A stretch of 64,000 nt of DNA from Candidatus Poribacteria bacterium (lineage in GTDB: Bacteria; Poribacteria; WGA-4E; WGA-3G): positions 4,096,001 to 4,160,000 of the forward strand of contig OZ251518.1 of the NCBI GenBank assembly GCA_965242965.1. The letters run 5' to 3'. Both the position numbers and the translations under genes were made by a program. Each line of letters opens with the position of its first letter. Positions within the stretch are counted from its first letter, which is position 1. A model generated the notes under the pieces. It saw only the letters and a list, made by a program, of their open reading frames with translations, made no database searches and had not been told where the DNA came from. Shown piece by piece: positions 9,082-26,872 of this stretch.

Positions 9082-9849
9082 ATGAGAAAAGTTATCTTAA
9101 CCCTCGGCGTGCTGGTGTTCAGCCTCATCGCGGCACACATCAGCACCGCCGAGATTGATATGGAGACAGCCGTCGGCATTTGGCTCTTTGATGAAGGCAA
9201 AGGCGATGTTGCCGGTGACCTGTCTGACGCAGGAAACGAGGGTGAACTCGTCAAGTCGCCCGCTTGGGTGAAAGGCAAATTCGGGATGGCTCTCGAATTT
9301 GACGGGAAAGCCAGCTGCGTCAAAACCGAACAGAAACTCCTTGATAGTTTAGAGGAGTTTACGATTATCCTGTGGGTGCAGACCGGGGACATCACCGCGA
9401 ATCGTATCGGCCTCGTCGGGCAAAACGATTCGCCAGAATTCGGGTTTATCAATCCGAACGAGTTGAACCTCTGGACACCCACCGCCGGTGGAACTTCAAA
9501 CCCGTGGGAATTCAAGCACGATGATGGCGAGTGGCACCACGTCGGATGTGTCGCCACGACAGACTATGTCCACGTCTATATTGATGGTGAATATGTTGAG
9601 AAGAAGGGCGGCTGGGCAAATCACGGCGCGTCTAATTTCAACGTCAACATCGGCGGCTGCGGCGTGTGGGACCCCGATGGTAACTTTTTCACCGGTGCTA
9701 TAGACGAAGTCGCCATCTTCCACTCTGCGCTGGAGCAAGAGGATATCCAGACGTTAATGGATGGATTCCAGACCTACTTGGCAGTTGAACCTGCCAATAA
9801 GTTGAGTGTGACGTGGGGACATCTGAAAAAGGTTAACCATTTCCGGTAA
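9082..9849 (+). CDS. Secreted LamG/concanavalin-like jellyroll protein (copy 2, tandem paralog)
   Basis: Near-identical to copy 1 except one internal segment; same C-terminal tail. Confidence 0.9.
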   Translation: MRKVILTLGVLVFSLIAAHISTAEIDMETAVGIWLFDEGKGDVAGDLSDAGNEGELVKSPAWVKGKFGMALEFDGKASCVKTEQKLLDSLEEFTIILWVQTGDITANRIGLVGQNDSPEFGFINPNELNLWTPTAGGTSNPWEFKHDDGEWHHVGCVATTDYVHVYIDGEYVEKKGGWANHGASNFNVNIGGCGVWDPDGNFFTGAIDEVAIFHSALEQEDIQTLMDGFQTYLAVEPANKLSVTWGHLKKVNHFR

Positions 9850-9875
9850 CGTTGTCGAAAACGTTCCATATTCAC

Positions 9876-10375
9876 GTAGGGCGAGGGCCTGTCCCTCGCC
9901 ATCCAACGATCGCGGGGGACAGGCCCCCGCGCTACGGTGTCCGGAACGGCCTCCCTTTACCGTAGGGCGAGGGCCTGTCCCTCGCCACGCACCGATCGCG
10001 AGAAAACCCGATCGCAGGCCGAAGACCACGCGCTCCGGGGCCTGAAACGATCGCGGGGGACAGGCCCCCGCGCTACGGTATTCGGAACGGCCTCCCTTAC
10101 CGTAGGGCGAGGGCCTGTCCCTCGCCATGCACCGATCGCGAAGAAACTCGCTCGGAACGGAGCTTGAAACGATCGCGGGGGACAGGCCCCCGCGCTACGG
10201 TGTCCGGAGCGGTCTCCTTTTACCGTAGGGCGAGGGCCTGTCCCTCGCCATCCAACAACCGCGCGCAAAACAGGCCCCCGCGCTAAGCCCATCTCTGTAG
10301 TTTGTGATCGCCTGATCACAAACGGTTCAGGATCTGGCGATCCTGACCTACAGAGGTGATGCAGTCTGACAGCCC
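9876..10375. repeat. Alternating inverted A/B REP array
   Basis: Four A hairpins alternating with inverted B hairpins, then a GTAGTTTGTGATCGCCTGATCACAAAC doublet. Confidence 0.95.
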
Positions 10376-10404
10376 GCCGGTAACGTGCTGTTTTTGCACA
10401 CAAA

Positions 10405-10623
10405 ATGAACATACAAGAAATGCTAACGCAGGAGATGCGTGAACTGCGCCGCTGCAACCCCGCGTTTCACGAACTTTTGAATGAACTTCTTCATTACAAA
10501 GACGGCACCGGAAATTATTCGGTCGACCGGCACAAGAAGTTGGACGAAGAGCCGGATATTGAGACGCTCGCAGCGCGAATCCAACGCAGACGCGAAACCG
10601 CGCAGAAGAACGAAAACGCGTAA
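10405..10623 (+). CDS. Small hypothetical protein
   Basis: 72-aa non-repeat ORF with a charged, helical composition, directly upstream of the R-M gene. Confidence 0.5.
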   Translation: MNIQEMLTQEMRELRRCNPAFHELLNELLHYKDGTGNYSVDRHKKLDEEPDIETLAARIQRRRETAQKNENA

Positions 10624-10685: not shown

Positions 10686-13600
10686 ATGCCAACACTTAAA
10701 CTCAAACCCACACATGCCGCCATCACCGAATACTACACGGCGCAGGAACGATACGCACGACAGAACGTCACCCGCGAAACAGCCGTGCGCGGCGCATTCA
10801 TCCCACTGCTAGAAACCTGCGCACGCCAAATGCAGTGGACACTCCTCCTCGAAGAGCCACTCCATACGCAACAAAACCGCAGAATTGTCATTGACGGTGT
10901 GCTTGTTGACGATTTCCGATTGCCGCAAGGTTACTACGAAGCGAAGGATATCCTCGATGATCTCGATGCCGAAATTGACAAGAAAATCGCCGCGGGCTAC
11001 CCACTTGACAATACCCTCTTCCAAAACCCCGAACGCGCGGTGCTTTATCAAAACGGCGAGATGGTGATGGAGGCAGACTTGGCGGATGCGGAACAACTGG
11101 TCGAAATCCTCAAGGCGTTTTGTGCCTACCGTTCCGATAACGTCACCGAATGGCAGGCGGCGGTGGCGGACTTCAAAACGCAGGTGCGCGCACTCGGACA
11201 ACGGGCGACGCGCCTCATCCAAGCCGAACTGCAGCAGAACCCACACTTTCAAGAGGTGTTCACCACTTTTCACCAACACTGCCGAGATTCAATCAACCCC
11301 AATCTCTCTACCGCCGCGGTGGAGGAGATGTTGGTGCAACACCTGCTGATAGAACGAACGTTCCGGACCGTTTTCAATAACCCCGATTTCACGCAGCGGA
11401 ACGTCATCGCGCGCGAAATCGCGAACGTTACCCAAGTGTTAATGGAACGGATGCCCAGTTCCGGCGAATTCCTCAAACCGTTGGACCGGTTTTATGACAC
11501 CATCGAACGCACCGCCGCCGATTTGAAGGACTTCTCCCAAAAACAGCACTTCCTTAACACCGTCTATGAGCAGTTCTTCCAAGGCTTTTCGGTTGACGTG
11601 GCGGATACGCACGGCATCGTCTACACCCCGCAACCTATCGTCAGTTTCATGGTGAAAAGCGTTGAACAGATTCTGCAAACCGAGTTTAACCGTTCGCTTT
11701 CGGATGCCGGGGTGCATCTCATCGACGCGTTCGTCGGCACCGGCAATTTCATCGTGCATCTCATGCGCGAAATCGGCGACAAAAGCAAAATCGCACTGAT
11801 GGACAAATACGCCGAGGGACTCTGGTGCAACGAGGTCTTGCTCTTACCCTATTACATCGCAACGCTCAACATCGAACACGAATTCTACGTCGCCACCGGG
11901 ACATACCGCCCCTTTGAAGGCATCTGTCTCGTCGATACGTTTGACTTGGCGGAAGGGAGACAGGCGGAGATGTTCGCGCCTGACAATACGCAACGCGTGG
12001 AGAAGCAGAAGGCTGCACCGATGTTCGTCGTCATCGGAAATCCACCCTATAACGCTGGACAAATCAACGAAAACGATAACAATAAGAATCGAAAGTATCC
12101 AGCAATGGATGCACGCGTGAAAGAGACATACGCGCAAGCCTCCAACGAGCAAAATAAAAAGCCTCTCGCGGACGCGTATGTTAAAGGACTCCGGTGGGCT
12201 TCCGACAGAATCGGCAAGGAAGGCATCGTCGCTGTCGTCACAAACAACAGTTTTCTTGACGGTAGAGCATTTGATGGAATGCGGAAACATCTGGCGCAGG
12301 ATTTCACCAAAATTTACCACCTCAATTTTAAGGGGAATGCGCGCACCTCCGGGGAACGCCGCCGAAAGGAGGGAGGTAACGTTTTTGACGATGAAATCCG
12401 TGTCGGCATCGGGATAAGTTTCTTCATCAAAAAGGCGCAACCGAAATCGGAACCTGCGGAAGTGTGGCTTTACCACGTTGACGACTATCTCAAGGCACGT
12501 GATAAGCAGGAACTCTTAATGCAATTCGGGGACTATACAAAAGTTCCGATGAAACAGGTAACGCCTGATTCAAGGCACACTTGGCTCACAGAGGATTTGC
12601 GTCCCGAATTTGAGACTTTTCTCCCTATGGGGAGCAAGAAAGCAAAAAAAGGCGAAGGAAATACCATTTTCGGCACTTTCTGCTGCGGTTTGCAAACTGC
12701 AAGAGATGTGTGGTGTTATCATTTCGACCGGGACGAACTCGCGCGAAACATGCGCGCGATGATTGACACCTACAACGGGGAGGTTTTCAGATGGGAACGG
12801 CGCACGAACCTAGATGAACAACTTGACTCCTTTGTAATTTCTGATAAGCAGAAAATTAGTTGGAGTTCGGCGTTAAAAAGTCATCTCCGGCGCGGACGCA
12901 TTGCGGAATTTTCAGAAGAGAAAATTCGCCAAGCACTCTATCGTCCCTTCACGAAAATGCATCTTTTCTTCGATCGCATTCTTGATCATGCCGTTTTTCT
13001 GTTCCCATCCATTTTCCCGACTCCCGAAACGGAAGGGGAGAATCGGGTGATATGTGTCAAGGCACCGGGTTCAACCAAACCTTTTCACGCGCTGATGACT
13101 GACATCATTCCTGATTACCATTTCACAGGGGATTCTCGGTGCTTTCCGTTCTATACTTACGATGAGGATGGGACGAATCGGCGTGAGAACATCACGGATT
13201 GGGCATTGGCGGCGTTCCGTTCGCATTACGGCGATGCTTCGATCACGAAGTGGGATATTTTCAACTATACTTACGGGCTGTTGCATCATCCTGCGTATGG
13301 CGAGACGTATCGGGCGAATTTGATGCGCGATTTGCCGCATATCCCGTTTGCGGCAGATTTCTGGGCATTTGCGAAGGCGGGTGCGCGGTTGGCAGAGTTG
13401 CATGTTGACTATGAGTCGCAGCCGGAGTATCCGTTGCGTTTGGCGGAGAATCCTGATGCCTCTCCCGATTGGCGCGTGGAGAAGATGAAGTTGTCGAGGG
13501 ACAAGACAGAGATTCGGTATAATGCGTGGTTAACGCTGGCGGACATTCCTGCGGCTGCGTTTTCGTATCGGTTGGGAGCGCGTTCGGCGTTGGAGTGGGT

Positions 13601-13760
13601 TGTGGAGCAGTATCGTGTCAAACGCAATGACCCGAGTGGCATCGTGAACGATGCGAATTGTTTGGGTTCGGAGCGCGCTATCGTGCGGCATCTCTGTCAG
13701 GTGACATGGGTGAGTTTAGAGACGGTTCGGGTTGTTTCGGGTTTGCCGGGGTTGATTTGA
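10686..13760 (+). CDS. Single-polypeptide R-M enzyme: N-terminal nuclease-like domain, N6-adenine MTase, type ISP-like C-terminal specificity domain
   Basis: IDG...YYEAKD PD-(D/E)xK-like motif; GIVYTPQPIV, DAFVGTGNF, IGNPPYN; GLQTARD.W, LYRPF, YTYGLLH...Y...L..DLPHIP, LAELHVDYE, SALEWVVEQY typical of the type ISP C-terminus. No SF2 helicase motifs. Confidence 0.85.
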   Translation: MPTLKLKPTHAAITEYYTAQERYARQNVTRETAVRGAFIPLLETCARQMQWTLLLEEPLHTQQNRRIVIDGVLVDDFRLPQGYYEAKDILDDLDAEIDKKIAAGYPLDNTLFQNPERAVLYQNGEMVMEADLADAEQLVEILKAFCAYRSDNVTEWQAAVADFKTQVRALGQRATRLIQAELQQNPHFQEVFTTFHQHCRDSINPNLSTAAVEEMLVQHLLIERTFRTVFNNPDFTQRNVIAREIANVTQVLMERMPSSGEFLKPLDRFYDTIERTAADLKDFSQKQHFLNTVYEQFFQGFSVDVADTHGIVYTPQPIVSFMVKSVEQILQTEFNRSLSDAGVHLIDAFVGTGNFIVHLMREIGDKSKIALMDKYAEGLWCNEVLLLPYYIATLNIEHEFYVATGTYRPFEGICLVDTFDLAEGRQAEMFAPDNTQRVEKQKAAPMFVVIGNPPYNAGQINENDNNKNRKYPAMDARVKETYAQASNEQNKKPLADAYVKGLRWASDRIGKEGIVAVVTNNSFLDGRAFDGMRKHLAQDFTKIYHLNFKGNARTSGERRRKEGGNVFDDEIRVGIGISFFIKKAQPKSEPAEVWLYHVDDYLKARDKQELLMQFGDYTKVPMKQVTPDSRHTWLTEDLRPEFETFLPMGSKKAKKGEGNTIFGTFCCGLQTARDVWCYHFDRDELARNMRAMIDTYNGEVFRWERRTNLDEQLDSFVISDKQKISWSSALKSHLRRGRIAEFSEEKIRQALYRPFTKMHLFFDRILDHAVFLFPSIFPTPETEGENRVICVKAPGSTKPFHALMTDIIPDYHFTGDSRCFPFYTYDEDGTNRRENITDWALAAFRSHYGDASITKWDIFNYTYGLLHHPAYGETYRANLMRDLPHIPFAADFWAFAKAGARLAELHVDYESQPEYPLRLAENPDASPDWRVEKMKLSRDKTEIRYNAWLTLADIPAAAFSYRLGARSALEWVVEQYRVKRNDPSGIVNDANCLGSERAIVRHLCQVTWVSLETVRVVSGLPGLI

Positions 13761-13833: not shown

Positions 13834-14364
13834 ATGAAAGGCGTTGTTGTTTTGCTAGTGGCGTTGTTTTTGGCTGTGCCTGCGCACGGCCAGGTCAGCG
13901 AAGAAAGGCTTGAGCAGATTATGAACCGGGCTCTTGAGCCGGTGCTGAACGAACTCCGTGAACTGAACGTAAAGTTTCACAAACTGGAAGCAAAGGTCCA
14001 CGCATTGGAAGCAAAGGTCCACGAACTGGAAGTGGAGCTCATCGTGGTAAAAGAGACTGTCCAAAAGGGGGAGATTGCGTTAAGCGGGCTGACGAGCGAG
14101 GTCCGCGGGAACGGGACCCGGATTACCGATGTGCGCGAGCAACTGACTTGGCAGTCAACTGGGCTGTTAACGGTGTCAGGCTTGCTGGTGACGTTGCTGC
14201 TGTGGGTCCTCAAGAAGGTATGGGATGAGCGTCGCGCAGACCGCGCTGAGTTGGCGGCGCAGCAGGCAGAACTTGTTCGGTTGCGCGCCGAGAACGAACG
14301 GCTCAAACCCCAAATTATTACGGAACGTGGGGGTGCCGCGAATGTTTCTGGGAACGTGCCTTAA
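13834..14364 (+). CDS. Coiled-coil membrane protein (signal peptide, heptad repeats, TM segment, cytoplasmic coil)
   Basis: AHG signal cleavage site; LEAKVH heptads encoded by a 21-bp tandem repeat at ~13981-14032; GLLTVSGLLVTLLLWVL TM. Confidence 0.75.
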   Translation: MKGVVVLLVALFLAVPAHGQVSEERLEQIMNRALEPVLNELRELNVKFHKLEAKVHALEAKVHELEVELIVVKETVQKGEIALSGLTSEVRGNGTRITDVREQLTWQSTGLLTVSGLLVTLLLWVLKKVWDERRADRAELAAQQAELVRLRAENERLKPQIITERGGAANVSGNVP

Positions 14365-14429: not shown

Positions 14430-16037
14430 ATGGCAACTACCAGATATTTTGAGACTCGGGGGCCGGTGGATGCGGCGTTGCACTACGTCGTGCCTCGGAC
14501 GGCGGAGTTAGCCGATTTCATCGCGCGCGTCAAACTGGGGCGGTATATCGTGATTTTCGCGCCGCGCCAGACAGGCAAGACGACGTTTTTCCGGTGGGCC
14601 CTAGCCGCGCTCGCAGCGGAAGACACAACCTATTTTCCGATTCATCTGGATTTTGAGGCGTATAAAAACTACTCGCCTGCCGATTTCTACGCCAATCTCC
14701 ACGAAGATATTCTTGAGGAGATTGAGGACGTTTTCCAGCAGCGGGGCATCGCGATGCCGGATGCCTTAACGGCGTTTTTAGCGGATGCGACGCTCACAGA
14801 TCACGTTGCCATGATAAGGTTTTTTAGAAGGTTCGCGCGTTTGCTAGGAAAGCCGCGGATTGTCCTTCTCATCGACGAATTTGATGGCATCCCGCAGGCA
14901 CTCGTGAGTGATTTTCTGTATGCACTCCGCCGTGTGTATGTCTCAAAGCGTCTTGATGACAGGGCTCCCTATAGCGTCGGCATCGTCGGTGTCAAGAACA
15001 TCACACAGTTGAACTACGATAGGACTATCTCGCCGTTTAATATCCAAGAGGAGTTCCACTTACCCAACTTCACGTTGGCACAAGTGCAGGAACTGTTCGG
15101 ACAGTATACCGCTGAAGTCGGACAACCGTTTGAACCGGCAGTCGTTGAAACCCTGCATCGGCAGACAGCCGGACAGCCGTTTCTCGTCAACCGCCTCGCG
15201 CAACTCCTCACACAGGAACCGGAGATACCGAGAACGGAGACAATCTCATTGACGCACTTCGCTGCAGCACACGCCACCGTTCTCGTGGAAGATAATGTCA
15301 ACATCCAACATCTGCGCGCCAATGTTCGCCGAAACCCGCGGTTTGAAAACCTCCTCATGAACATCGCCTTATCAGAGGACGGTGTCCTTTTCACGTTTGA
15401 CAACGAAGTCATGAGCGAACTTGCAACTTACGGTGTCATCGCCCGGGGAACCGATGGCATGTGTGAGATTGTCAATCCTATTTATCTTTACCGTATCTTG
15501 CGAACCTTCGCGCCGCTCGTCAACGGCTTAGAAGCCGACTACTACCCCGAGGACACGCGTGGGGGTAGTCACTACCTCACTTCTGATGGACAGTTGCAGA
15601 TGGACAGGCTCATGGAGAACTTCCGCGATTTCATCGCCCGCGTCGGGTTCAGGATACTGGAGGTGCCACAGACACCGCGGGAATATGTAGGACAACGCCT
15701 GCTGTTCGCCTATCTCGAACAGGTAGTGAAGCAGCAAGGCGGCGGGATGTTCCTTGAGGTGCCGACAGGGCGCGGCCGCATGGATTTACTCGTCGTCCAC
15801 CGCGGCCGCAAATATATCGTAGAAACGAAGATTTGGCACGGCACAGCGAGTTATGCAGATGGCAAGCGGCAGCTTGCCAAGTATCTCACGCTTGAGGATG
15901 CCGCCGAGGGATATTACCTCGTCTTCGATCACCGGCAGCAGCCGCAGCCCCGGACGGAAACCGAACAGATAGAGGGCAAGACGCTCCGGAGCTATGTCAT
16001 TCCTATCGTCCAAGAACGCCCATCGGACGCGGTATAG
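14430..16037 (+). CDS. AAA-like (STAND-type) ATPase with C-terminal PD-(D/E)XK nuclease domain, copy 1
   Basis: Walker A APRQTGKTT, Walker B LLIDEFD, GQPFLVN motif; C-terminal EVPTGRGRMD...VETK...QLAKY. Confidence 0.85.
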   Translation: MATTRYFETRGPVDAALHYVVPRTAELADFIARVKLGRYIVIFAPRQTGKTTFFRWALAALAAEDTTYFPIHLDFEAYKNYSPADFYANLHEDILEEIEDVFQQRGIAMPDALTAFLADATLTDHVAMIRFFRRFARLLGKPRIVLLIDEFDGIPQALVSDFLYALRRVYVSKRLDDRAPYSVGIVGVKNITQLNYDRTISPFNIQEEFHLPNFTLAQVQELFGQYTAEVGQPFEPAVVETLHRQTAGQPFLVNRLAQLLTQEPEIPRTETISLTHFAAAHATVLVEDNVNIQHLRANVRRNPRFENLLMNIALSEDGVLFTFDNEVMSELATYGVIARGTDGMCEIVNPIYLYRILRTFAPLVNGLEADYYPEDTRGGSHYLTSDGQLQMDRLMENFRDFIARVGFRILEVPQTPREYVGQRLLFAYLEQVVKQQGGGMFLEVPTGRGRMDLLVVHRGRKYIVETKIWHGTASYADGKRQLAKYLTLEDAAEGYYLVFDHRQQPQPRTETEQIEGKTLRSYVIPIVQERPSDAV

Positions 16038-16091
16038 CCACGCGTGTTATTCCACGGACGAGACTAGTTATCAACAAGGAGGCAAAAACTG

Positions 16092-17693
16092 ATGGCAACC
16101 CGATATTTTGAGACTCGAGGGCCCGTGGATGCGGCGTTGCACTACGTCGTGCCTCGGACGGTGGAGTTAGCCGATTTCATCGCGCGCGTCAAACTGGGGC
16201 GGTATATCGTTATCTTCGCGCCGCGCCAGACGGGCAAGACGACGTTCTTCCGGACAGCCCTGAAAACGTTGCTAGTTGAGGAGCCAAACTACTGTCCTAT
16301 TGAACTCAATTTCCAGGTGTATAAAAACGTCACACCGACTGCATTCTACGCGCATTTCTCGCAGAAGTTGCGCGAGGAAATTGAGAATGTCTTCCAAAAA
16401 CGGCAAGCGGTTGTTCCGGAGGCGTTGCACCGTTTGTTGGAGGAGTCAGTGCTAACCGATCATCTTGCGATGTTGGATTTCTTCAAACGTCTGGGGCGGG
16501 TGTTAGCCCCACAGCGGTTTGTCCTCATCATCGACGAGTTTGATGGTATTCCGCCGGCAATCGTGAGCGATTTTTTGTATGTGTTGCGGCAGACGTATCA
16601 TGAGGCGTTGGCTTCGCGGTGTCCGTTCAGTCTGGGGCTCGTGGGTGTGAAGGACCTCACGCAGTTGAACTACGACAGAACGATTTCGCCGTTCAATATC
16701 CAAGATGAGTTCTACTTGCCCAGCTTCACGTTGGAACAGGTGCAGGAACTGCTCGGACAGTATACCGCTGAAGTCGGACAACCGTTTGCCCCAAAGGTAA
16801 TCGAGACGTTGCATCGGCAGACAGGGGGGCAGCCCTTTCTCGTGAATCGTTTCGCGCAACTCCTCACACAGGAACTGGAGATACCTAAAACGGAGACTGT
16901 CTCACTAACGCACTTCGCGGTAGCACATGCCGCCGTTCTCGTGGAAGATAATGTCAACATCCAGCATCTGCGCGCCAATGTCCGACGAAACCCGCGGTTT
17001 GAACGTCTCCTTATGAACATCGCCTTATCAGAGAACGGCGTGCTCTTCACGCGTGACAACGAAGTCATGAGCGCACTTGCAACTTACGGTGTCATCGCCC
17101 GGGGAACCGATGGCATGTGTGAGATTGTCAATCCCATTTATCTTTACCGTATCCTGCGAACCTTCGCGCCACTCGTGAATGGCTTAGAAGCCGACTACTA
17201 CCCCGAGGACACACGTAGTGGTAGTCACTACCTCACCGCCGATGGACAGCTGCGGATGGATAGGCTCATGGAGAACTTCCGCGACTTCATCGCCCGCGTC
17301 GGGTTCAGAATTCTGAATGTGCCGGAGACACCGCGGGAATATGTAGGGCAACGCCTGCTGTTCGCCTATCTCGAACAGGTGGTAAAGCAGCAAGGCGGCG
17401 GGATGTACCTCGAAGTGCCGACAGGACGCGGCCGCATGGATTTACTCGTCGTTCACCGCGGCCGCAAATATATCGTAGAAACGAAGATTTGGCACGGCAC
17501 CGCGAGGTATGAAGCCGGCAAACAGCAACTCGCCAAGTATCTGACAGTCGAGCAGGCTGCCGAGGGATATTATCTCGTCTTCGATCATCGGCAGCAGCCA
17601 CAGCCGCGGACAGAAACCGAGCAGATAGAAGGCAGAACGCTCCGGAGCTATGTCATTCCTATCGTCCAAGAACGCCCATCGAACACCGCGTAA
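16092..17693 (+). CDS. AAA-like ATPase/PD-(D/E)XK nuclease, copy 2
   Basis: Same motifs; SD AAGGAGG. Confidence 0.85.
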   Translation: MATRYFETRGPVDAALHYVVPRTVELADFIARVKLGRYIVIFAPRQTGKTTFFRTALKTLLVEEPNYCPIELNFQVYKNVTPTAFYAHFSQKLREEIENVFQKRQAVVPEALHRLLEESVLTDHLAMLDFFKRLGRVLAPQRFVLIIDEFDGIPPAIVSDFLYVLRQTYHEALASRCPFSLGLVGVKDLTQLNYDRTISPFNIQDEFYLPSFTLEQVQELLGQYTAEVGQPFAPKVIETLHRQTGGQPFLVNRFAQLLTQELEIPKTETVSLTHFAVAHAAVLVEDNVNIQHLRANVRRNPRFERLLMNIALSENGVLFTRDNEVMSALATYGVIARGTDGMCEIVNPIYLYRILRTFAPLVNGLEADYYPEDTRSGSHYLTADGQLRMDRLMENFRDFIARVGFRILNVPETPREYVGQRLLFAYLEQVVKQQGGGMYLEVPTGRGRMDLLVVHRGRKYIVETKIWHGTARYEAGKQQLAKYLTVEQAAEGYYLVFDHRQQPQPRTETEQIEGRTLRSYVIPIVQERPSNTA

Positions 17694-17748
17694 ACTCGCG
17701 GGGTGTGCGCTAGGAGGAACACCGCTACCCGCTAAGGAGGAAACAATT

Positions 17749-19350
17749 ATGGCAACCCGATATTTTGAGACGCAGGGACCGGTAGATGCCGCCGTAAACT
17801 ACGTTGTCTCCCGGCAATCGGAACGCGCCGATTTCATCCAGCGCGTCAAGCGCGGGCGATACATTGTCATGTTCGCACCACGGCAAACAGGAAAAACGAC
17901 GTTCTTCCGGTGGGCCCTAGCCGAACTCGCGGCAGAAGACGCAACCTATTTTCCGATTCAATTCAATTTTGATGTGTATGAAGGCCGGCCCGCCGCCCGG
18001 TTTTATCCGCATTTCGCTAAAAAACTCCGCGAGGCAATTGAGGGAGTCTTCTACGAGCGTGACATCAAGCTGCCTCCGCCGCTCGCACAGTTTTTAGCGG
18101 ACGCGACGATAGCCGACCAGGTAGATATGCTAGATTTCTTTCAGGCGTTGGGACGGCATCTCACCGACTATCGCGTCGTGCTACTGATAGACGAGTTTGA
18201 TGGCATCCCGCCTGAGGCAGTGACAGGGTTTCTTCACGCACTCCGTCATATCTATATTTCCGGTGTCGCGGCTCGGTGTCCTTATAGCGTCGGCATCATC
18301 GGGGTGAAGAACGTCGTGCAACTGAACTACGATAGGACGATTTCGCCGTTTAATATACAAGAGGAGTTCCACTTACCCAACTTCACGTTGGAGCAGGTGC
18401 AGGAACTGCTCGGACAGTATACCGCTGAAGTCGGACAGCCGTTTGACCCGGCAGTCGTTGAAACCCTGCATCGGCAGAGCGGGGGGCAACCGTTTCTCGT
18501 CAATCGCCTCGCGCAACTCCTTACACAGGAACTGGAGATACCGAAAACGGAGACTGTCTCACTGACGCACTTCGCGGCAGCACATGCCGCCGTGCTGGTG
18601 GAAGATAACGTCAACATCCAGCATCTGCGCGCCAATGTCCGACGAAATCCGCGGTTTGAACGCCTCCTCATGAACATCGCCTTATCAGAAAACGGCGTGC
18701 TCTTCACGCGTGACAACGAAGTCATGAGCGAACTTGCAACGTATGGTGTCATCGCCCGGGGAACCGATGGCATGTGTGAGATTGTTAATCCCATTTATCT
18801 TTACCGTATCCTGCGAACCTTCGCACCACTCGTCAACGGCTTAGAAGCCGACTATTTCCCCGCCGACACCGGCGGCGCAGGACACTACCTCACCGCCGAA
18901 GGGCAGCTGCGAATGGACAGGCTCATGGAGAACTTCCGCGACTTCATCGCCCGCGTCGGGTTCAGAATTCTGAATGTGCCGGAGACACCGCGGGAATATG
19001 TGGGACAACGCCTGCTGTTCGCCTATCTCGAACAGGTGGTGAAGCAGCAAGGCGGCGGGATGTACCTTGAAGTGCCGACAGGGCGCGGCCGCATGGATTT
19101 ACTCGTCGTTCACCGCGGCCGCAAATATATCGTAGAAACGAAGATTTGGCACGGCGCAGAGAGGTATGCAGCCGGCAAACGGCAACTCGCCAAGTATCTC
19201 GCGCTAGAAGATGCCGCCGAGGGATATTACCTCGTCTTCGATCACCGGCAACAGCCACAGCCGCGTACGGAAACCGAGCAGATAGAAGGCAGAACGCTCC
19301 GGAGTTATGTCATCCCCATCGTCCAAGAACGCCCATCGGACACCGCGTAA
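17749..19350 (+). CDS. AAA-like ATPase/PD-(D/E)XK nuclease, copy 3
   Basis: Same motifs; start MATRYF at 17749 by paralogy, with SD AAGGAGG. Confidence 0.85.
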   Translation: MATRYFETQGPVDAAVNYVVSRQSERADFIQRVKRGRYIVMFAPRQTGKTTFFRWALAELAAEDATYFPIQFNFDVYEGRPAARFYPHFAKKLREAIEGVFYERDIKLPPPLAQFLADATIADQVDMLDFFQALGRHLTDYRVVLLIDEFDGIPPEAVTGFLHALRHIYISGVAARCPYSVGIIGVKNVVQLNYDRTISPFNIQEEFHLPNFTLEQVQELLGQYTAEVGQPFDPAVVETLHRQSGGQPFLVNRLAQLLTQELEIPKTETVSLTHFAAAHAAVLVEDNVNIQHLRANVRRNPRFERLLMNIALSENGVLFTRDNEVMSELATYGVIARGTDGMCEIVNPIYLYRILRTFAPLVNGLEADYFPADTGGAGHYLTAEGQLRMDRLMENFRDFIARVGFRILNVPETPREYVGQRLLFAYLEQVVKQQGGGMYLEVPTGRGRMDLLVVHRGRKYIVETKIWHGAERYAAGKRQLAKYLALEDAAEGYYLVFDHRQQPQPRTETEQIEGRTLRSYVIPIVQERPSDTA

Positions 19351-19405
19351 GCGCGCGGGGTGTTCGCTATGAGGAGCACCGCTATCCGCTAAGGAGGAAA
19401 CAGTT

Positions 19406-21010
19406 ATGGCAACCCGATATTTTGAGACGCAGGGACCGGTAGATGCCGCCGTGAACTACGTTGTCTCCCGTCAATCGGAACGCGCCGATTTCATTCAGCG
19501 CGTCAAGCGCGGGCGATACATCGTCATGTTCGCACCACGGCAAACAGGAAAAACGACGTTCTTCCACGCCGCCCTGGAGACGCTTGCGGCAGAAGAGCCC
19601 ACCTACTTTCCTATCGCCCTCAATTTTGAGGAATATGAAGGCCTCACTGCCCCCGATTTTTACGAGGGGCTCCGTGAAGATATATTGGCAGCAATAGAGA
19701 ACACGTTTCATCAACGTGGCAGCGAACCTTCTGAGGCATTATCGCGATTTCTGGCGGAGGCGCAGATAACAAACCATATTGCCATGAGACGATTTCTTAG
19801 CCGGTTCGCGCGTTTTTTGGATGGGCAGCGGGTTGTCCTGCTCATTGATGAATTTGATGGCATCCCATCAGATGCGGTGATGGGGTTCCTCCATTCTCTC
19901 CGCCGTGTCTATGTCTCCGAGCCGCGCGACACTCGGTGTCCCTATAGTGTCTGTATCGTGGGGGTGAAGAACGTCGCGCAGTTGAATTACGATAGGACGA
20001 TTTCGCCGTTTAATATCCAAGAGGAGTTCCATTTGCCCGGCTTCACGTTGGAACAAGTGCAAGAACTGCTCGGACAGTATACCGCTGAAGTCGGACAATC
20101 GTTTGAACCCGAAGTCCTCGCAACGCTGCAGCGGCAGACAGGCGGACAACCGTTTCTCGTCAACCGCCTCGCGCAACTCCTCACACAGGAACTGGACATC
20201 CCCAAAGACATCACCATTTCCCTGGAACACTTTGCCCAGGCACATCAGAAACTCTTGATGGAAGACAATGTCAACTTTAATCATTTGACGACGAATGTCC
20301 AGCGAGACCCGAGATTTGAACACCTGTTGATGCGCATTGCTTCCTCGGCGCAACCCATCAGTTTCAATCCCTGGAATGATGTCATGAAGGAACTCGCAAC
20401 CTACGGTGTCATCGCGAAAGCGAACGATGGCAAATGTGAGATTGTCAATCCCATCTATCAGTATTGCGTCATCCGGGCATTTCAGCGGGAAATTAACGGT
20501 TTAGAAGGGGACTACTTCCCTGCGACTACCCGCACCGGGTATCAGGATTATCTCACCCCAACCGGCGACATCGCCCTGGCACCCTTGCTAGACAATTTTC
20601 GCGATTTCATCGTGCGTGCGGGGTTTCGGCTCCTCCACGTGCCGCAGCTCCCCCGGGAATCGGTGGGCCAACACCTCTTGGCGGCTTACCTCGATGGCTT
20701 TGTGAAAGCCGTCGGCGGTTTCCTCTATCTTGAAGTACCAACCGGACGGGGCCGGATAGATATGATCATCCTCCACAACCGGCGCAAGTATATCGTGGAG
20801 ACGAAGATATGGGGGGGCGCAGGACATTATGAAGCCGGAAAGAAACAACTCGTTGCATATCTCACGCTTGAGGATGCCGCCGAGGGATATTATCTCGTCT
20901 TCGATCACCGGCAGCAGCCGCAGCCGCTTACGGAAACCGAGCAGATAGAGGGCAGAACGCTCCGGAGCTATGTCATTCCCATCATCCAAGAACGCCCATC
21001 GGACGCTTGA
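19406..21010 (+). CDS. AAA-like ATPase/PD-(D/E)XK nuclease, copy 4 (divergent C-terminal half)
   Basis: Same motifs; EVPTGRGRID...VETK retained. Confidence 0.85.
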   Translation: MATRYFETQGPVDAAVNYVVSRQSERADFIQRVKRGRYIVMFAPRQTGKTTFFHAALETLAAEEPTYFPIALNFEEYEGLTAPDFYEGLREDILAAIENTFHQRGSEPSEALSRFLAEAQITNHIAMRRFLSRFARFLDGQRVVLLIDEFDGIPSDAVMGFLHSLRRVYVSEPRDTRCPYSVCIVGVKNVAQLNYDRTISPFNIQEEFHLPGFTLEQVQELLGQYTAEVGQSFEPEVLATLQRQTGGQPFLVNRLAQLLTQELDIPKDITISLEHFAQAHQKLLMEDNVNFNHLTTNVQRDPRFEHLLMRIASSAQPISFNPWNDVMKELATYGVIAKANDGKCEIVNPIYQYCVIRAFQREINGLEGDYFPATTRTGYQDYLTPTGDIALAPLLDNFRDFIVRAGFRLLHVPQLPRESVGQHLLAAYLDGFVKAVGGFLYLEVPTGRGRIDMIILHNRRKYIVETKIWGGAGHYEAGKKQLVAYLTLEDAAEGYYLVFDHRQQPQPLTETEQIEGRTLRSYVIPIIQERPSDA

Positions 21011-23483: not shown

Positions 23484-25163
23484 CTACTCGCGGAGCTGCA
23501 CCAGCGTCTCCATCGCATGCTTATTCCCCGGCTCCAACTCCAACACCTTTTCAAAAGCAGCTATTGCTTCTGAGACGTTACCAAGATTCTGGTGTGCCAC
23601 TCCCAATGCGCCGTAAGCGCGGGCGTGCGCCGAGTCAAGTGCCAGCACCTTTTCAAACTGCGCCACCGCCTTTGCGTAGTGGGTTTGCGTCAAAAAGATT
23701 AAGCCGAGTCTGTAAATCGCTTGCACATCTGTTGCATCGTCAGCGATGGCGACTTTGTAGTGCGGCTCGGCTTTGACATACGCCTGTTTTTTCCAATACA
23801 CCTCGGCGAGCGCGCGATGCAACGCAGGGGTATCGGGCGTGAGCACCAACGCCTTTTGATACGCCGCGATTGCTGTCACGTTCCTCCCAAGTTGATAATA
23901 GACGCGCCCCAAATAATAGTGAACCTCCGCTGTCAAATCGGTAATCTCCGTGGGTGTCATGTCCGTTTCACTGCGGAGCAACACGTGCGCGCTCTCAAAT
24001 GCGGCGATTGCCTCGTTATACCGTTCCGTATGAAGCAACGCGATACCGTAATCCCGCCACACCTCCACATCTTTTTGCTGATGCGAGATGAGGGGTTCAA
24101 ATTCTGCGGCGGCACTTGCAAAATCGCCTTCGGACAGATAACGTCTGCCGCGTTCGGCATAGAGTGGTGCAGTCACGCCTGCGCGAAGCACCTCCCACCA
24201 GAGCGGTTCAAGTAACCGGTTGAATCGGCTGGGTTCGCGCGCTGAGGTTGCATGCCGTTTTGCCGCCGCGGTATCGCCCAAGGCGAGATGCACTTGCGCC
24301 ATCAAGGCATGCGCCTCACGCTGATGCGGGTTAATCCGAAGGGCGCGTGCCAAATGTGTCCGTGCAAGCCCCACTTGCTGTCTCGTGAAGGCAATCTCTC
24401 CAAGCCAGAGTTCCGAAAACGGATTGTCGGGTTGGAGGATATTCGCGCGGGATAGGTGGTGCTTCGCCTCCTCAAGCCGGCCAAGCACCCGTAACGCCGA
24501 GGCGAGATAGAGATGCGCCGGCACATCCCCCGCCTTCAACGCCAGCGCACGTGTGAAGGCCTGCACCGCCGTTTGCGGTTCACGCTGCACCGTCACCCTG
24601 CCGAGAAAATAGTGCCACCGGAATCCATTCGGTGCGAGACGACTCGCTTGCCGATAACACGCCACCGATGTTTCTTCCCAGCCGTGGACGAGGTAGACAT
24701 GTCCTAATTTCCCCCACGCCTCGGCATCGTCAGGCGCATCCCGAACGGCTTGCTGCGCCAGCGCGATTGCATCCAACAGCAATTTCTCCGAAACGAGATG
24801 TAGATCAGCGGGTTCCGGAATCTCAATCTCCTCGGCAGCCATAGGCATCGCGTTTATCATCATAAGCAGCAGGGTAACCCCAAACAGGCTCCCTAGGCGC
24901 GCTTTGCCTGTAGGTGAGCCCTCCCGGTCTCGATGCATGCGATTTCGGGACAGGGATGTCCCTCCTACCGCACACCCCGTAGGAGAGCCCTCCTGGTCTC
25001 GCTGCATGCGATTTCGGGACAGGGATGTCCCTCCTACCGCACACCCCGTAGGAGAGCCCTCCCGGTCTCGATGGATGCGATTTCGGGACAAGGATGTCCC
25101 TCCTACCGCACACTCCGTAGGCGAGCCCTCCTGGTCTCGATGATGCTTGTATCTGAAATTCAA
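23484..25163 (-). CDS. Secreted TPR-repeat protein; 5' end uncertain because of an in-frame REP array
   Basis: Many TPRs (AEAWGKLGHVY, AYGALGVAH..LGN). TTG 25163 overlaps the upstream TGA; h-region LGSLFGVTLLLMM follows the repeat-encoded segment. Confidence 0.8.
   Translation of the reverse strand: MNFRYKHHRDQEGSPTECAVGGTSLSRNRIHRDREGSPTGCAVGGTSLSRNRMQRDQEGSPTGCAVGGTSLSRNRMHRDREGSPTGKARLGSLFGVTLLLMMINAMPMAAEEIEIPEPADLHLVSEKLLLDAIALAQQAVRDAPDDAEAWGKLGHVYLVHGWEETSVACYRQASRLAPNGFRWHYFLGRVTVQREPQTAVQAFTRALALKAGDVPAHLYLASALRVLGRLEEAKHHLSRANILQPDNPFSELWLGEIAFTRQQVGLARTHLARALRINPHQREAHALMAQVHLALGDTAAAKRHATSAREPSRFNRLLEPLWWEVLRAGVTAPLYAERGRRYLSEGDFASAAAEFEPLISHQQKDVEVWRDYGIALLHTERYNEAIAAFESAHVLLRSETDMTPTEITDLTAEVHYYLGRVYYQLGRNVTAIAAYQKALVLTPDTPALHRALAEVYWKKQAYVKAEPHYKVAIADDATDVQAIYRLGLIFLTQTHYAKAVAQFEKVLALDSAHARAYGALGVAHQNLGNVSEAIAAFEKVLELEPGNKHAMETLVQLRE
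24910..25142. repeat. 69-bp period tandem of C/D REP doublets (3 full + 1 partial)
   Basis: GTAG starts at 24910, 24979, 25048 and 25117. Confidence 0.95.
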
Positions 25164-26872
25164 AACGGTTCCCCCTCTCCCTGAACAACTATCACCCGTT
25201 GATTGACAGCCGCACCGCGAAATTGTTCACGACGGCCATCAGGCCACCGCACCTCAATCGCTTGAATTGCATCAGTAGTGCCCAATCCGAAATGCACACT
25301 CGGTTCGCTGCTGCTAAGATAACTGCTATTCGGCAGCACGAAGCCGGTGTAAACCTGCGATGCTTTTCCGCCGATTTTAATCGTCACCTGTGCGCCGAGG
25401 GCATCTCGGTTTTGAGCCATCGCGCGCACGAGAAGCCAGTTGTGTTTGGGTGGCGGCGCATCGTTTCGGAAAACGCGAAGACGATTGTCAAGCATGGTGA
25501 CGACGATGTCTAAATCGCCATCTCTATCAATATCGCCGAAAGCCGCGCCGCGGCTCACCTCAATCTGTCCTGTGAAATCTGATGCCCGCGAACTGACATC
25601 GGTGAAAATAGGTAGCTCTGCCTGTCCGCCGTTCCGAGAATTCTGAAACAGCAGATTCGGTTCGGCATAAAATCCCCAGAATTCCCCCGCGTTCTTGCCT
25701 TCACTGACAGGAATGACAGGCATGACAGGCCCGCGTTTCACTCTACCGTTAACGACAGCAATATCCACATCTGCATCGTTGTCAAAATCGATGAACCCAC
25801 AGCCAAATCCTGTGAACGGCACATCGCGTCCAGCAAACCCGACGACTTCTGTCATATCCATGAAAGTCGCGCCTGACGCACCGCCGATATAGAGGGTGTT
25901 CGTCTCATCGGTTAAGTGCGTTACAAACAGCTCCGGGTGCGTGTCGCCGTTGACATCCCCGACAGCGATGCCCATGCTCCCCTCCGGTTGTCCGTAGGTG
26001 TTGAAGGCGAGTCCTCGCAAAATAGCCTCCTCGGTAAACGTGTTATCCTTTTGGTTCTTTTGGTTTACCCAAAGTTGATTCGCCTCTCCATCGTTAGCGA
26101 CGTAGAAATCGCTCCAGCCATCTCCCGTTAAATCGAGGCAGACGACACCGAGCCCGCGCCCCGGAGCCCCCGCGATGCCGACTTGTTCTGTCATGTCCGT
26201 GAAAGTGCCATCGCCGTTATTGAGGAAGAACCTGTCTGGGGCAGGAGGAAACCTTTGCGGATTGCAGTAATCTCGCGCGCCGTGTTTGCCTCGACAAATC
26301 GCCGCCGCGTCAAATTGAACATAGTTTGCCACGTAGAGATCGAGGTATCCGTCCCTGTTGACATCGCCAAACGCTGCGGATGTCCCCCATGCATCGTTGG
26401 AAAGTCCAACGGACTCTAACGTGAAAGTGCCATCGCCGTTATTGCGATAGAAAGCATCCGGTCCGAAGTTTGTCACGTAGACATCGGCATCGCCATCGTT
26501 ATCTACATCGCCGATAGCCACGCCTTGGCCGTATCCCGGATGCCCAATCGCGGCGGTTTCTGTGACATCAACGAACGTTCCATCGGATTGTTGCCGGTAT
26601 AGCCGATTCGGCGCGGGCATGTCTGACTGCCCGGGCGGCGGAAATCGGATATGCAGGATATCCAGCGCGCCATCGCCATTGAAATCAAATAGCGCAACAC
26701 CGCTTCCAATGACTTCGTGGAGCGCGTAAGTGCCGGCAGGCCACAAAGCATCCGTTTGCCGAAAGCCGAGTTCCGTGGTTATTTCAACAAACAGCGGCGC
26801 GTCCGATGCCGCTTGGCTTGCGCATACCACTATCGCGGCGATAATCAATGCGAGCGCGTAGCGTTTAAACAC
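25160..26872 (-). CDS. CRTAC1-family FG-GAP/ASPIC-UnbV secreted protein
   Basis: GSGVALFDFNGDG, GQGVAIGDVDNDGD, SRGAAFGDIDRDGD, SYLSSS...HFGLG, VRWPDG. GTG start 26872 after GGAGA. Confidence 0.9.
   Translation of the reverse strand: MFKRYALALIIAAIVVCASQAASDAPLFVEITTELGFRQTDALWPAGTYALHEVIGSGVALFDFNGDGALDILHIRFPPPGQSDMPAPNRLYRQQSDGTFVDVTETAAIGHPGYGQGVAIGDVDNDGDADVYVTNFGPDAFYRNNGDGTFTLESVGLSNDAWGTSAAFGDVNRDGYLDLYVANYVQFDAAAICRGKHGARDYCNPQRFPPAPDRFFLNNGDGTFTDMTEQVGIAGAPGRGLGVVCLDLTGDGWSDFYVANDGEANQLWVNQKNQKDNTFTEEAILRGLAFNTYGQPEGSMGIAVGDVNGDTHPELFVTHLTDETNTLYIGGASGATFMDMTEVVGFAGRDVPFTGFGCGFIDFDNDADVDIAVVNGRVKRGPVMPVIPVSEGKNAGEFWGFYAEPNLLFQNSRNGGQAELPIFTDVSSRASDFTGQIEVSRGAAFGDIDRDGDLDIVVTMLDNRLRVFRNDAPPPKHNWLLVRAMAQNRDALGAQVTIKIGGKASQVYTGFVLPNSSYLSSSEPSVHFGLGTTDAIQAIEVRWPDGRREQFRGAAVNQRVIVVQGEGEPF

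Follow-up and report, generated by a model that had tools for sequence, protein, structure and literature searches.

The 64,000-nt window analyzed here (positions 4,096,001 to 4,160,000 of contig OZ251518.1, from a Candidatus Poribacteria bacterium) carries on its forward strand a tandem array of four genes that appear to encode single-chain ATPase-nuclease proteins. Copy 1 lies at 14430..16037 (535 aa), copy 2 at 16092..17693 (533 aa), copy 3 at 17749..19350 (533 aa), and copy 4 at 19406..21010 (534 aa), which gives an array period of 1657-1662 nt and agrees with the four intact tandem paralogs of ∼534 aa and ∼1.66-kb period described in the initial annotation of this sequence. At the protein level, copies 2, 3, and 4 are 80, 80, and 67% identical to copy 1, respectively. 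The genes are separated by spacers of 54-55 nt (spacer 1/2 at 16038..16091, 2/3 at 17694..17748, and 3/4 at 19351..19405, all on the + strand), each of which ends in an AAGGAGG ribosome-binding site. The start of copy 3 was placed at the ATG behind this site; the longer open reading frame (ORF) that begins at 17650 extends over the end of copy 2 and is unlikely to mark the true start. Spacers 2/3 and 3/4 are homologous, as had been proposed (∼90% identity over 52 nt), and spacer 1/2 is related to neither; a hairpin over the stop codon, proposed at the same time, was not recovered when spacer folds were compared with shuffled sequences (z = -0.26, 0.02, and -1.33). No promoter- or terminator-like sites beyond shuffled expectation were found in the spacers, so the four genes probably form one operon.

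Models and profile matches indicate that each copy joins a predicted AAA+/STAND-like ATPase, a lid, a winged helix, and a C-terminal PD-(D/E)XK nuclease in one chain. All four proteins matched Pfam AAA_35 (PF14516), with scores of 50.0, 57.5, 53.3, and 55.8 bits for copies 1-4 against a gathering cut-off of 27 bits and E-values of 1e-13 to 1e-15 over the four copies (2.5e-13 for copy 1). Further Pfam matches were to AAA_22/AAA_16 and, below threshold, to NERD, and no TPR or WD sensor repeats were among the Pfam matches of the four copies. Precomputed annotations label the window proteins DUF8371 (PF28130), and no NCBIfam model matched them. An AlphaFold2 model of copy 1, built from a 70-sequence alignment, had a mean predicted local distance difference test score (pLDDT) of 89.2 and a predicted template modeling score of 0.82. 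Foldseek searches with residues ∼1-370 ranked highest the archaeal structures 2qen (PABY2304), 2v1u (Orc1), 2qby (Cdc6/Orc1), and 2fna (SSO1545), with E-values of 3e-10 to 7e-9, followed by RuvB and RFC, with MalT and Avs4 at ranks 49-50. Profile sequence searches also matched ORC4 and 2fna and, weakly, the 947-residue "Archaeal ATPase" of 8hr7/8fnt (E 0.003), which we take to be RADAR RdrA.

The nuclease domain of copy 1 occupies residues 385-535 (15582..16034, + strand). Modeled alone, these C-terminal 151 residues gave a pLDDT of 91.1 and a PD-(D/E)XK fold; in the full-length model of copy 1, the domain has helix 418-435, strands 439-446, 449-457, and 460-468, helix 472-488, and strand 493-500. 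The best structural match was McrC (6hz4_M; Z 10.2, root mean square deviation 4.4 over 123 residues, Foldseek E 9.6e-5), and the next were Can2/Card1, BglII, and BamHI (Z 8.4-8.8 for Can2, BglII, and BamHI), then Bax1, NucS, and Hjc. The nuclease-motif residues of the domain are E418, E443, D452, E465-x-K467, and Q481. In the 70-sequence alignment, which reaches down to 21% identity, G49/K50, D149, and G248-x-P250 are invariant, and E150 and E443/D452/E465/K467 are nearly so; the Walker A, Walker B, GxP, and nuclease residues are retained in all 19 full-length paralogs of the window's genome. Predicted topology, conserved residues, and fold matches all place the domain in the PD-(D/E)XK superfamily as a putative nuclease, and the combination of such a domain with an ATPase in the absence of TPR/WD repeats is what the initial annotation had read from the sequence.

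Sliding DNA identity along the four genes revealed a mosaic. Over nt 1-120, copies 1 and 2 are 95-98% identical to one another and copies 3 and 4 are 95-97% identical, with ∼68% between the two pairs. Over nt 121-210 it is copies 1 and 3 that agree (80-90%), and in the protein alignment these two share the motif RWALA..LAAED.TYFPI after Walker A. Every pair falls to 40-78% identity at nt 211-540 and lies at ∼70-95% at nt 541-780. From nt 781 to 1440, copies 1-3 are mostly 85-100% identical, with a dip to 65-77% at nt 1081-1140, versus 47-82% for copy 4; every pair then returns to ∼77-95% at nt 1441-1611. The 125 four-taxon informative sites follow the same pattern: the first 33 (nt 27-150) all favor the grouping 12|34, and seven of the eight at nt 167-214 favor 13|24. 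These sites fall into 52 runs, compared with a mean of 79 and a minimum of 59 in 10,000 permutations. Private differences at nt 781-1443 number 192 in copy 4 and 7-15 in the other copies, and copy 4 has eight in the last 168 nt. The two N-terminal alleles (copies 1 and 2, copies 3 and 4), the motif common to copies 1 and 3, the segment divergent in all four copies, and the C-terminal half that is alike in copies 1-3, divergent in copy 4, and convergent again at its end had all been noted previously and are reproduced here. The breakpoints had been placed in conserved motifs, which holds for the first, in GKTTFF; the high variability extends to about residue 181, a little short of QLNYDRTISPFNIQ. 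The mosaics of copies 1, 2, and 3 recur at 93-100% identity per segment in proteins of other multi-megabase contigs (P0002, P0015, and P0017/P0018), and assembly chimerism is therefore an unlikely source of the pattern.

The conservation profile of the 19 full-length paralogs confirmed the interval between Walker A and Walker B as the least conserved part of the protein. Mean pairwise identity falls to 0.29-0.54 at residues ∼56-140 and 171-180, compared with 0.65-0.87 through most of the remaining protein, and a second variable zone lies at residues 311-330. We refer to residues ∼56-181 as the variable cassette, which corresponds to 14595..14972 in copy 1 and approximately to 16254..16628, 17911..18285, and 19568..19945 in copies 2, 3, and 4, respectively (all + strand). 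In the model of copy 1 it comprises the end of helix a1, strand b2, a three-helix insertion at residues 83-139 (helices 83-105, 111-119, and 125-139) that precedes the Walker B strand, that strand itself, and the loop that follows it. Conserved hydrophobic residues (FY86-87, I98, F102, L113, FL116-117, FF131-132, and LL138-139) alternate with variable positions along the insertion, and it follows that the scaffold is conserved while exposed faces vary. By topology, we take the cassette to lie where initiator-clade AAA+ proteins (Orc1/Cdc6) carry their DNA-contacting initiator-specific motif (ISM).

The array is real, but it does not stand alone, being one of three arrays in a family of ∼20 copies. 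The window's genome (5.70 Mb, two contigs) holds 19 full-length paralogs, one truncated copy of 364 aa, and one fragment, distributed over 13 loci, and those outside the array share 58-65% identity with copy 1. The other arrays consist of three genes (C1:3584918-3589814, in coordinates of contig C1) and two genes (C1:5358888-5362107). Among 40 related genomes searched, all 24 from the same Poribacteria family contain matches, at 1-27 per genome, compared with three of six, one of five, and none of five genomes in three sister families of the same order, with two matches at most in each. Distant full-length relatives of 21-40% identity are numerous (3792 cluster representatives at E ≤ 1e-3); they are multi-copy in Thiomargarita and Caldilineaceae/Chloroflexota genomes and also occur on cyanobacterial megaplasmids. 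A phage origin was considered and rejected, as 50,697 phage records contained no match and no match was confirmed in IMG/VR. The truncated copy (C1:2878176-2879270), which lacks the nuclease domain, holds the closest relative of the copy 2 cassette, and is possibly a donor or a relic of cassette exchange. In the paralog at C1:2239891-2241630, 30 extra residues are inserted in frame immediately ahead of the Walker B strand, encoded by DNA that occurs nowhere else in the genome.

Segment trees and identity comparisons show that the tandem copies have been homogenized by gene conversion in their N-terminus, middle, and C-terminus, that the cassette escapes this process, and that it descends from old lineages common to paralogs elsewhere in the genome. 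In trees of all paralogs, the array copies are monophyletic at residues 1-41 (support 0.93), 182-260 (0.98), and 482-535 (1.0). At residues 42-181, by contrast, they scatter among paralogs from other loci, and the cassettes of copy 2 and of the truncated copy at C1:2878176 pair as sisters with a support of 0.999. At residues 261-481, copies 1-3 form a clade (1.0) with copy 4 outside it, this stretch of copy 4 constituting a second C-terminal "tail" type. The approximately unbiased (AU) test rejected array monophyly for the cassette (log-likelihood difference 62.4, p = 0.0011) but not, at the 0.05 level, for residues 261-481 (p = 0.076); the separate origin of the copy 4 tail therefore rests on identity profiles and on the combinations found in databases. 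Within-array cassette identity is 53-65% in all 10 pairs from the three arrays, equal to the between-locus mean of 58%, whereas within-array identity at residues 182-260 and 482-530 is 82-95%, versus between-locus means of 76 and 69%. Informative-site runs, incongruent segment trees, and the AU test thus agree that the recombinational mosaicism is real.

The cassette has also been exchanged as a module between genes and strains, with breakpoints in conserved motifs. Cassettes of copies 1-4 were found at 94-100% identity in other assemblies, where they are combined with different N-termini or with the alternative tail type. Tail-type pairings for the four array cassette types were 15/6, 13/5, 3/5, and 4/1 among 123 sequences, so that all four occur with both tails; these sequences, grouped by single-linkage clustering, are the four copies plus the 119 best database hits to copy 1 and constitute a biased sample. 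In a genome of the same genus, the syntenic site has one gene between the same Type IIG restriction-modification (R-M) gene and the same Kelch-repeat gene, and this gene combines a copy-1-type cassette (84%) with a copy-4-type tail (81%), which implies that the array either expanded in the window's lineage or collapsed in the other. Pairwise Nei-Gojobori estimates for nine ortholog-like pairs from these two genomes gave dN/dS values of 0.13-0.31 for the cassette, compared with 0.06-0.16 for residues 182-260, and do not support positive selection on the cassette. The term "hypervariable" used in the initial annotation is accordingly misleading, since the cassettes represent discrete lineages of long standing that are conserved between assemblies and evolve under purifying selection.

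The same order of domains is found in DUF1703 (PF09820 AAA-ATPase_like plus PF08011 PDDEXK_9), whose ATPase-nuclease architecture and motifs were described by Knizewski et al. 2007 (PMC1913061). According to that paper, DUF1703 proteins share with the window proteins the AAA+ base, lid, small helical/winged-helix region, and C-terminal PD-(D/E)XK domain, the atypical Walker A motif PRxxGK[ST] (APRQTGKT in the window versus RPRRFGKS), and near-equal residue numbers for the motif I Glu and motif IV Gln (E418/Q481 in the window versus E420/Q480). Of the relatives in the 70-sequence alignment, 26 match PF09820 (best E 2.4e-9) and 19 match PF08011 (best E 6.5e-7), whereas copies 1-4 match neither at E ≤ 0.01. 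Because architecture, Walker A, and nuclease motifs agree while the window proteins do not match these models, we class the family as a sister of DUF1703 rather than a member. A precedent for its expansion is the insect symbiont Cardinium cCpun, for which one report (PMC6387759) gives 25 recombining DUF1703 paralogs of unknown function, 10 with predicted signal peptides. Both cases are lineage-specific expansions with intragenic recombination in symbionts; they differ in that "no apparent homogenization" is stated for Cardinium in that report, in contrast to the strong homogenization outside the cassette in the Poribacteria tandem copies. Beyond the Cardinium precedent, the Poribacteria family has a delimited cassette and two tail types that reassort, and its scaffold evolves in concert within tandem arrays. 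The literature searches made found no description of the family in Poribacteria (supplements lay outside the search) or of modularity based on a cassette and two tails, and the terms DUF8371/PF28130 appeared in none of the papers listed.

Comparison with better characterized ATPases places the family near several systems. PABY2304 (2qen) and SSO1545 (2fna), both of Pfam ATPase_2 (PF01637), and Orc1/Cdc6, which provide the best fold match for residues ∼1-370, likewise carry helices inserted between b2 and the Walker B strand; these proteins have origin-binding or unknown roles, lack a nuclease domain, and are not multi-copy with exchangeable cassettes. Identity with an Orc1/Cdc6 initiator was rejected, the extra nuclease domain and ∼20 paralogs being incompatible with it. 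McrC resembles the predicted nuclease, and by analogy with McrBC, in which the NTPase forms a ring, the family may also use an NTPase to license a PD-(D/E)XK nuclease. In McrBC, however, the McrB GTPase and McrC are separate subunits, whereas the family has one chain, an ATPase of Orc/STAND type, and no separate N-terminal DNA-binding domain; identity with McrBC was rejected on the basis of the single chain and because no McrB chain is among the ATPase-module fold matches listed.

STAND proteins are marked by a GxP motif in the helical domain, an acidic pair in Walker B, and a winged helix after the lid. G248-x-P250, the acidic pair D149/E150, and a winged helix are present in the family; only two of the 70 aligned relatives match nSTAND1 and one matches iSTAND, and the best fold matches are AAA+ proteins of the Orc/Cdc6 kind. 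Avs proteins and RADAR RdrA resemble the family in joining a P-loop switch ATPase to a nuclease or other effector and in having the GxP motif and an hhxRxxE motif before Walker A. They differ from it in that the family lacks C-terminal TPR-like sensor repeats, has its effector at the C-terminus rather than the N-terminus, and has its candidate recognition element inside the ATPase domain. The initial assignment to Avs-type STAND proteins was not sustained; no PADLOC Avs or RADAR model matched copies 1-4 at E ≤ 0.01, the nuclease is C-terminal, and the nearest folds are archaeal AAA+/Orc1/Cdc6, with Avs4 at rank 50.

The gene upstream of the array (10686-13760, + strand) encodes a complete 1024-aa Type IIG-like R-M enzyme with full-length matches to PADLOC REase_MTase_IIG models. 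It contains an ISP coupler, an N6 methylase, and a Type ISP C-terminal specificity domain, and a D...EAK motif near residues 70-86 suggests an N-terminal nuclease. Between it and copy 1 lies a gene for a 176-aa coiled-coil membrane protein (13834-14364). A Type IIG enzyme is directly upstream at two of the 13 family loci, the window included, and the two enzymes belong to different PADLOC families. No recurrent partner gene was found at the family loci, and most singleton paralogs have an extended -10-like sequence of their own, so the proteins are probably self-contained. The genome is packed with defense genes throughout. In 13 arbitrary 13.6-kb control regions (L130-L142), defense matches included Type IIG and Type III R-M, a GajB-like helicase, PD-T4-4/AriA-like ATPases, Hma, a DRT-type reverse transcriptase with an MzaA-like neighbor, and a Dnd/Ssp-type Orf5. 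Outside the Poribacteria, a relative on a Pseudanabaena plasmid adjoins DISARM/NACHT/BrnTA and one on a Marinitoga plasmid adjoins a Type I R-M system. At 12 loci from other phyla, 9 of 106 neighboring ORFs match PADLOC models, and PDC-S27 candidates adjoin the family gene at 2 of the 12 Chloroflexota/Thiomargarita loci. Such defense-type neighbors are suggestive in a comparison that had no controls.

Taken with the predicted architecture, these observations can be explained by a family of NTP-switched nucleases used in conflict with foreign DNA, in which the cassette of each paralog sets its target, and we assign this reading a probability of about one half. Each gene would encode a single-polypeptide NTP-switched nuclease, and variable exposed helix faces of the cassette would set what each paralog recognizes. 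Recognition would then lead to ATP-dependent assembly, by which the nuclease would be licensed, and the ∼20 paralogs would amount to a germline repertoire of differently targeted nucleases acting against phages or other foreign DNA. A bolder form of this proposal, which we hold only tentatively, is that Poribacteria maintain a germline-encoded set of immune receptors, as many as ∼27 single-chain ATPase-nucleases per genome, that is reassorted combinatorially and has as its recognition element an exchangeable three-helix cassette inside the NTPase domain instead of repeats at one end of the protein. This would be an analog of nucleotide-binding leucine-rich repeat receptor (NLR) repertoires, diversified by cassette exchange while the scaffold is kept by concerted evolution. 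The same repertoire logic may hold for the whole DUF1703/AAA_35 superfamily.

A defense role is something we infer rather than observe, and several results weigh against it. Purifying selection and 94-100% conservation between strains are unlike an ongoing arms race. With a net charge of -7 to +2, the cassette ranges from neutral to acidic, which does not suggest binding to the DNA backbone, and its placement at the ISM position as a specificity element in an oligomer comes from topology rather than from a residue-level superposition. No PADLOC defense model matched the window proteins beyond weak nuclease-domain matches (E ≥ 4e-4). Nor are family loci enriched in defense genes: of 120 ORFs around the 12 family loci that lie outside the window, 14 matched PADLOC models at E ≤ 1e-10, compared with 23 of 141 in the 13 control regions of the same genome (ORFs being mechanical calls of at least 100 aa). 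The R-M gene next to the array, which had been offered in support of a defense function, was therefore dropped as evidence and carries no weight. Several paralogs lie among housekeeping or polysaccharide genes, and one of the three plasmid relatives examined lies among carbohydrate genes.

The strongest rival to the conflict reading is that the cassette forms a protomer-protomer interface, which would insulate co-expressed paralogs from mixed oligomers, with specificity, if there is any, residing in the winged helix or the tail types. Cassettes that always differ within an array whose flanks are homogenized are what such insulation would produce, and the amphipathic helices, with their conserved cores and variable non-basic faces, fit it equally, as do the second variable zone at residues 311-330 and the independent reassortment of two discrete tail types. 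In initiator-clade AAA+ proteins, moreover, the equivalent insertion also packs against the neighboring protomer. Scattered singleton paralogs nevertheless carry equally distinct cassettes, and we consider an interface role on the whole unlikely. The remaining readings are less likely. Cellular proteins of DNA metabolism or regulation, such as structure-specific repair nucleases or Orc/MalT-like switches acting on different chromosomal substrates and unrelated to conflict, would account for the resemblance to Orc1/Cdc6, RuvB, and RFC, for several loci among housekeeping genes (ruvABC, maf, and glnE), and for purifying selection on all copies. Housekeeping genes, however, do not typically undergo modular reassortment between strains, close relatives hold anywhere from 1 to 27 copies, and the near-absence of the family from sister families (0-2 matches) means that it is not essential; we therefore view a purely cellular function as improbable.

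Many dispersed copies, a patchy distribution (Poribacteria, Thiomargarita, Chloroflexota, and cyanobacterial megaplasmids), variable copy number at a syntenic site, and the presence of a truncated copy and a fragment could instead reflect a selfish or addictive element, such as a homing-type or mobile-element-associated nuclease that propagates to its own advantage inside and across genomes, with mosaicism a by-product of frequent ectopic recombination. Such an element has a low probability. No family-specific terminal repeats were found, 400-nt flanks sharing only short genome-wide palindromes that resemble repetitive extragenic palindromes (REPs), and no transposase or integrase recurs as a partner. 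Syntenic orthologs are under purifying selection across species, the paralogs are old, being 59-65% identical, phage collections contain no copies, and the 30-aa insertion in the C1:2239891 paralog is unique rather than a repeat. The family has expanded in a host-associated lineage with many eukaryote-like proteins (Kelch, ankyrin, TPR, and WD40 neighbors), which also raises the idea of symbiosis effectors, that is, nucleases delivered to the sponge host or to competitors. An effector role was speculated upon for the Cardinium cCpun DUF1703 expansion, with its predicted signal peptides (PMC6387759). In the Poribacteria proteins, however, the conserved N-terminus MxxRYFETRGPV... belongs to the fold and, judged without a predictor, does not resemble a signal peptide. 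No secretion-system genes were seen beside the loci, and relatives are also present in multiple copies in Thiomargarita and Caldilineaceae/Chloroflexota metagenome genomes lacking a symbiont label, so that an effector function seems quite remote.

Whatever the function, DUF1703/AAA_35-type ATPase-nucleases are widespread, have undergone repeated expansion in symbionts and in large, complex bacteria, and have yet to be assigned a function. The locus and its family provide a clean natural experiment in which the scaffold is homogenized by gene conversion and one cassette is kept distinct, and the alternative cassette and tail pairings in other assemblies point to ∼100 residues as candidates for a role in specificity. 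If the role in conflict with foreign DNA is correct, the family would be a new single-gene class of defense system and an example of a receptor repertoire located inside an NTPase domain, and it would help to explain the immunity of sponge symbionts under heavy viral traffic.

Further features of the genome were observed near the family loci. Nineteen of 20 family genes, and 12 of 13 loci with the window included, are on the + strand, compared with 50% of long ORFs genome-wide (binomial p = 0.003 by loci). Contig C1 shows no replichore pattern in its GC skew; one possible cause of the strand bias is selection against inversions arising through ectopic recombination. Upstream of the three-gene array, C1:3578530-3584814 encodes a 938-aa fusion of Tubulin_2 and HSDR_N_2, followed by an XPB-type helicase and DUF790 (Bax1-like), and this cluster may be a separate defense-type module. 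Beside the paralog with the 30-residue insertion, C1:2241829-2246612 contains a TGT-family (queuine tRNA-ribosyltransferase-like) gene and, after it, four genes with no Pfam match, an arrangement reminiscent of 7-deazaguanine DNA-modification clusters. REP-like palindromes are dense throughout the genome, including the window at 9750-10460 and 24800-25190 and the flanks of many family loci; in translation they give recurring peptide motifs, both in spurious ORFs and within the 5' part of the TPR gene at 23484-25163.

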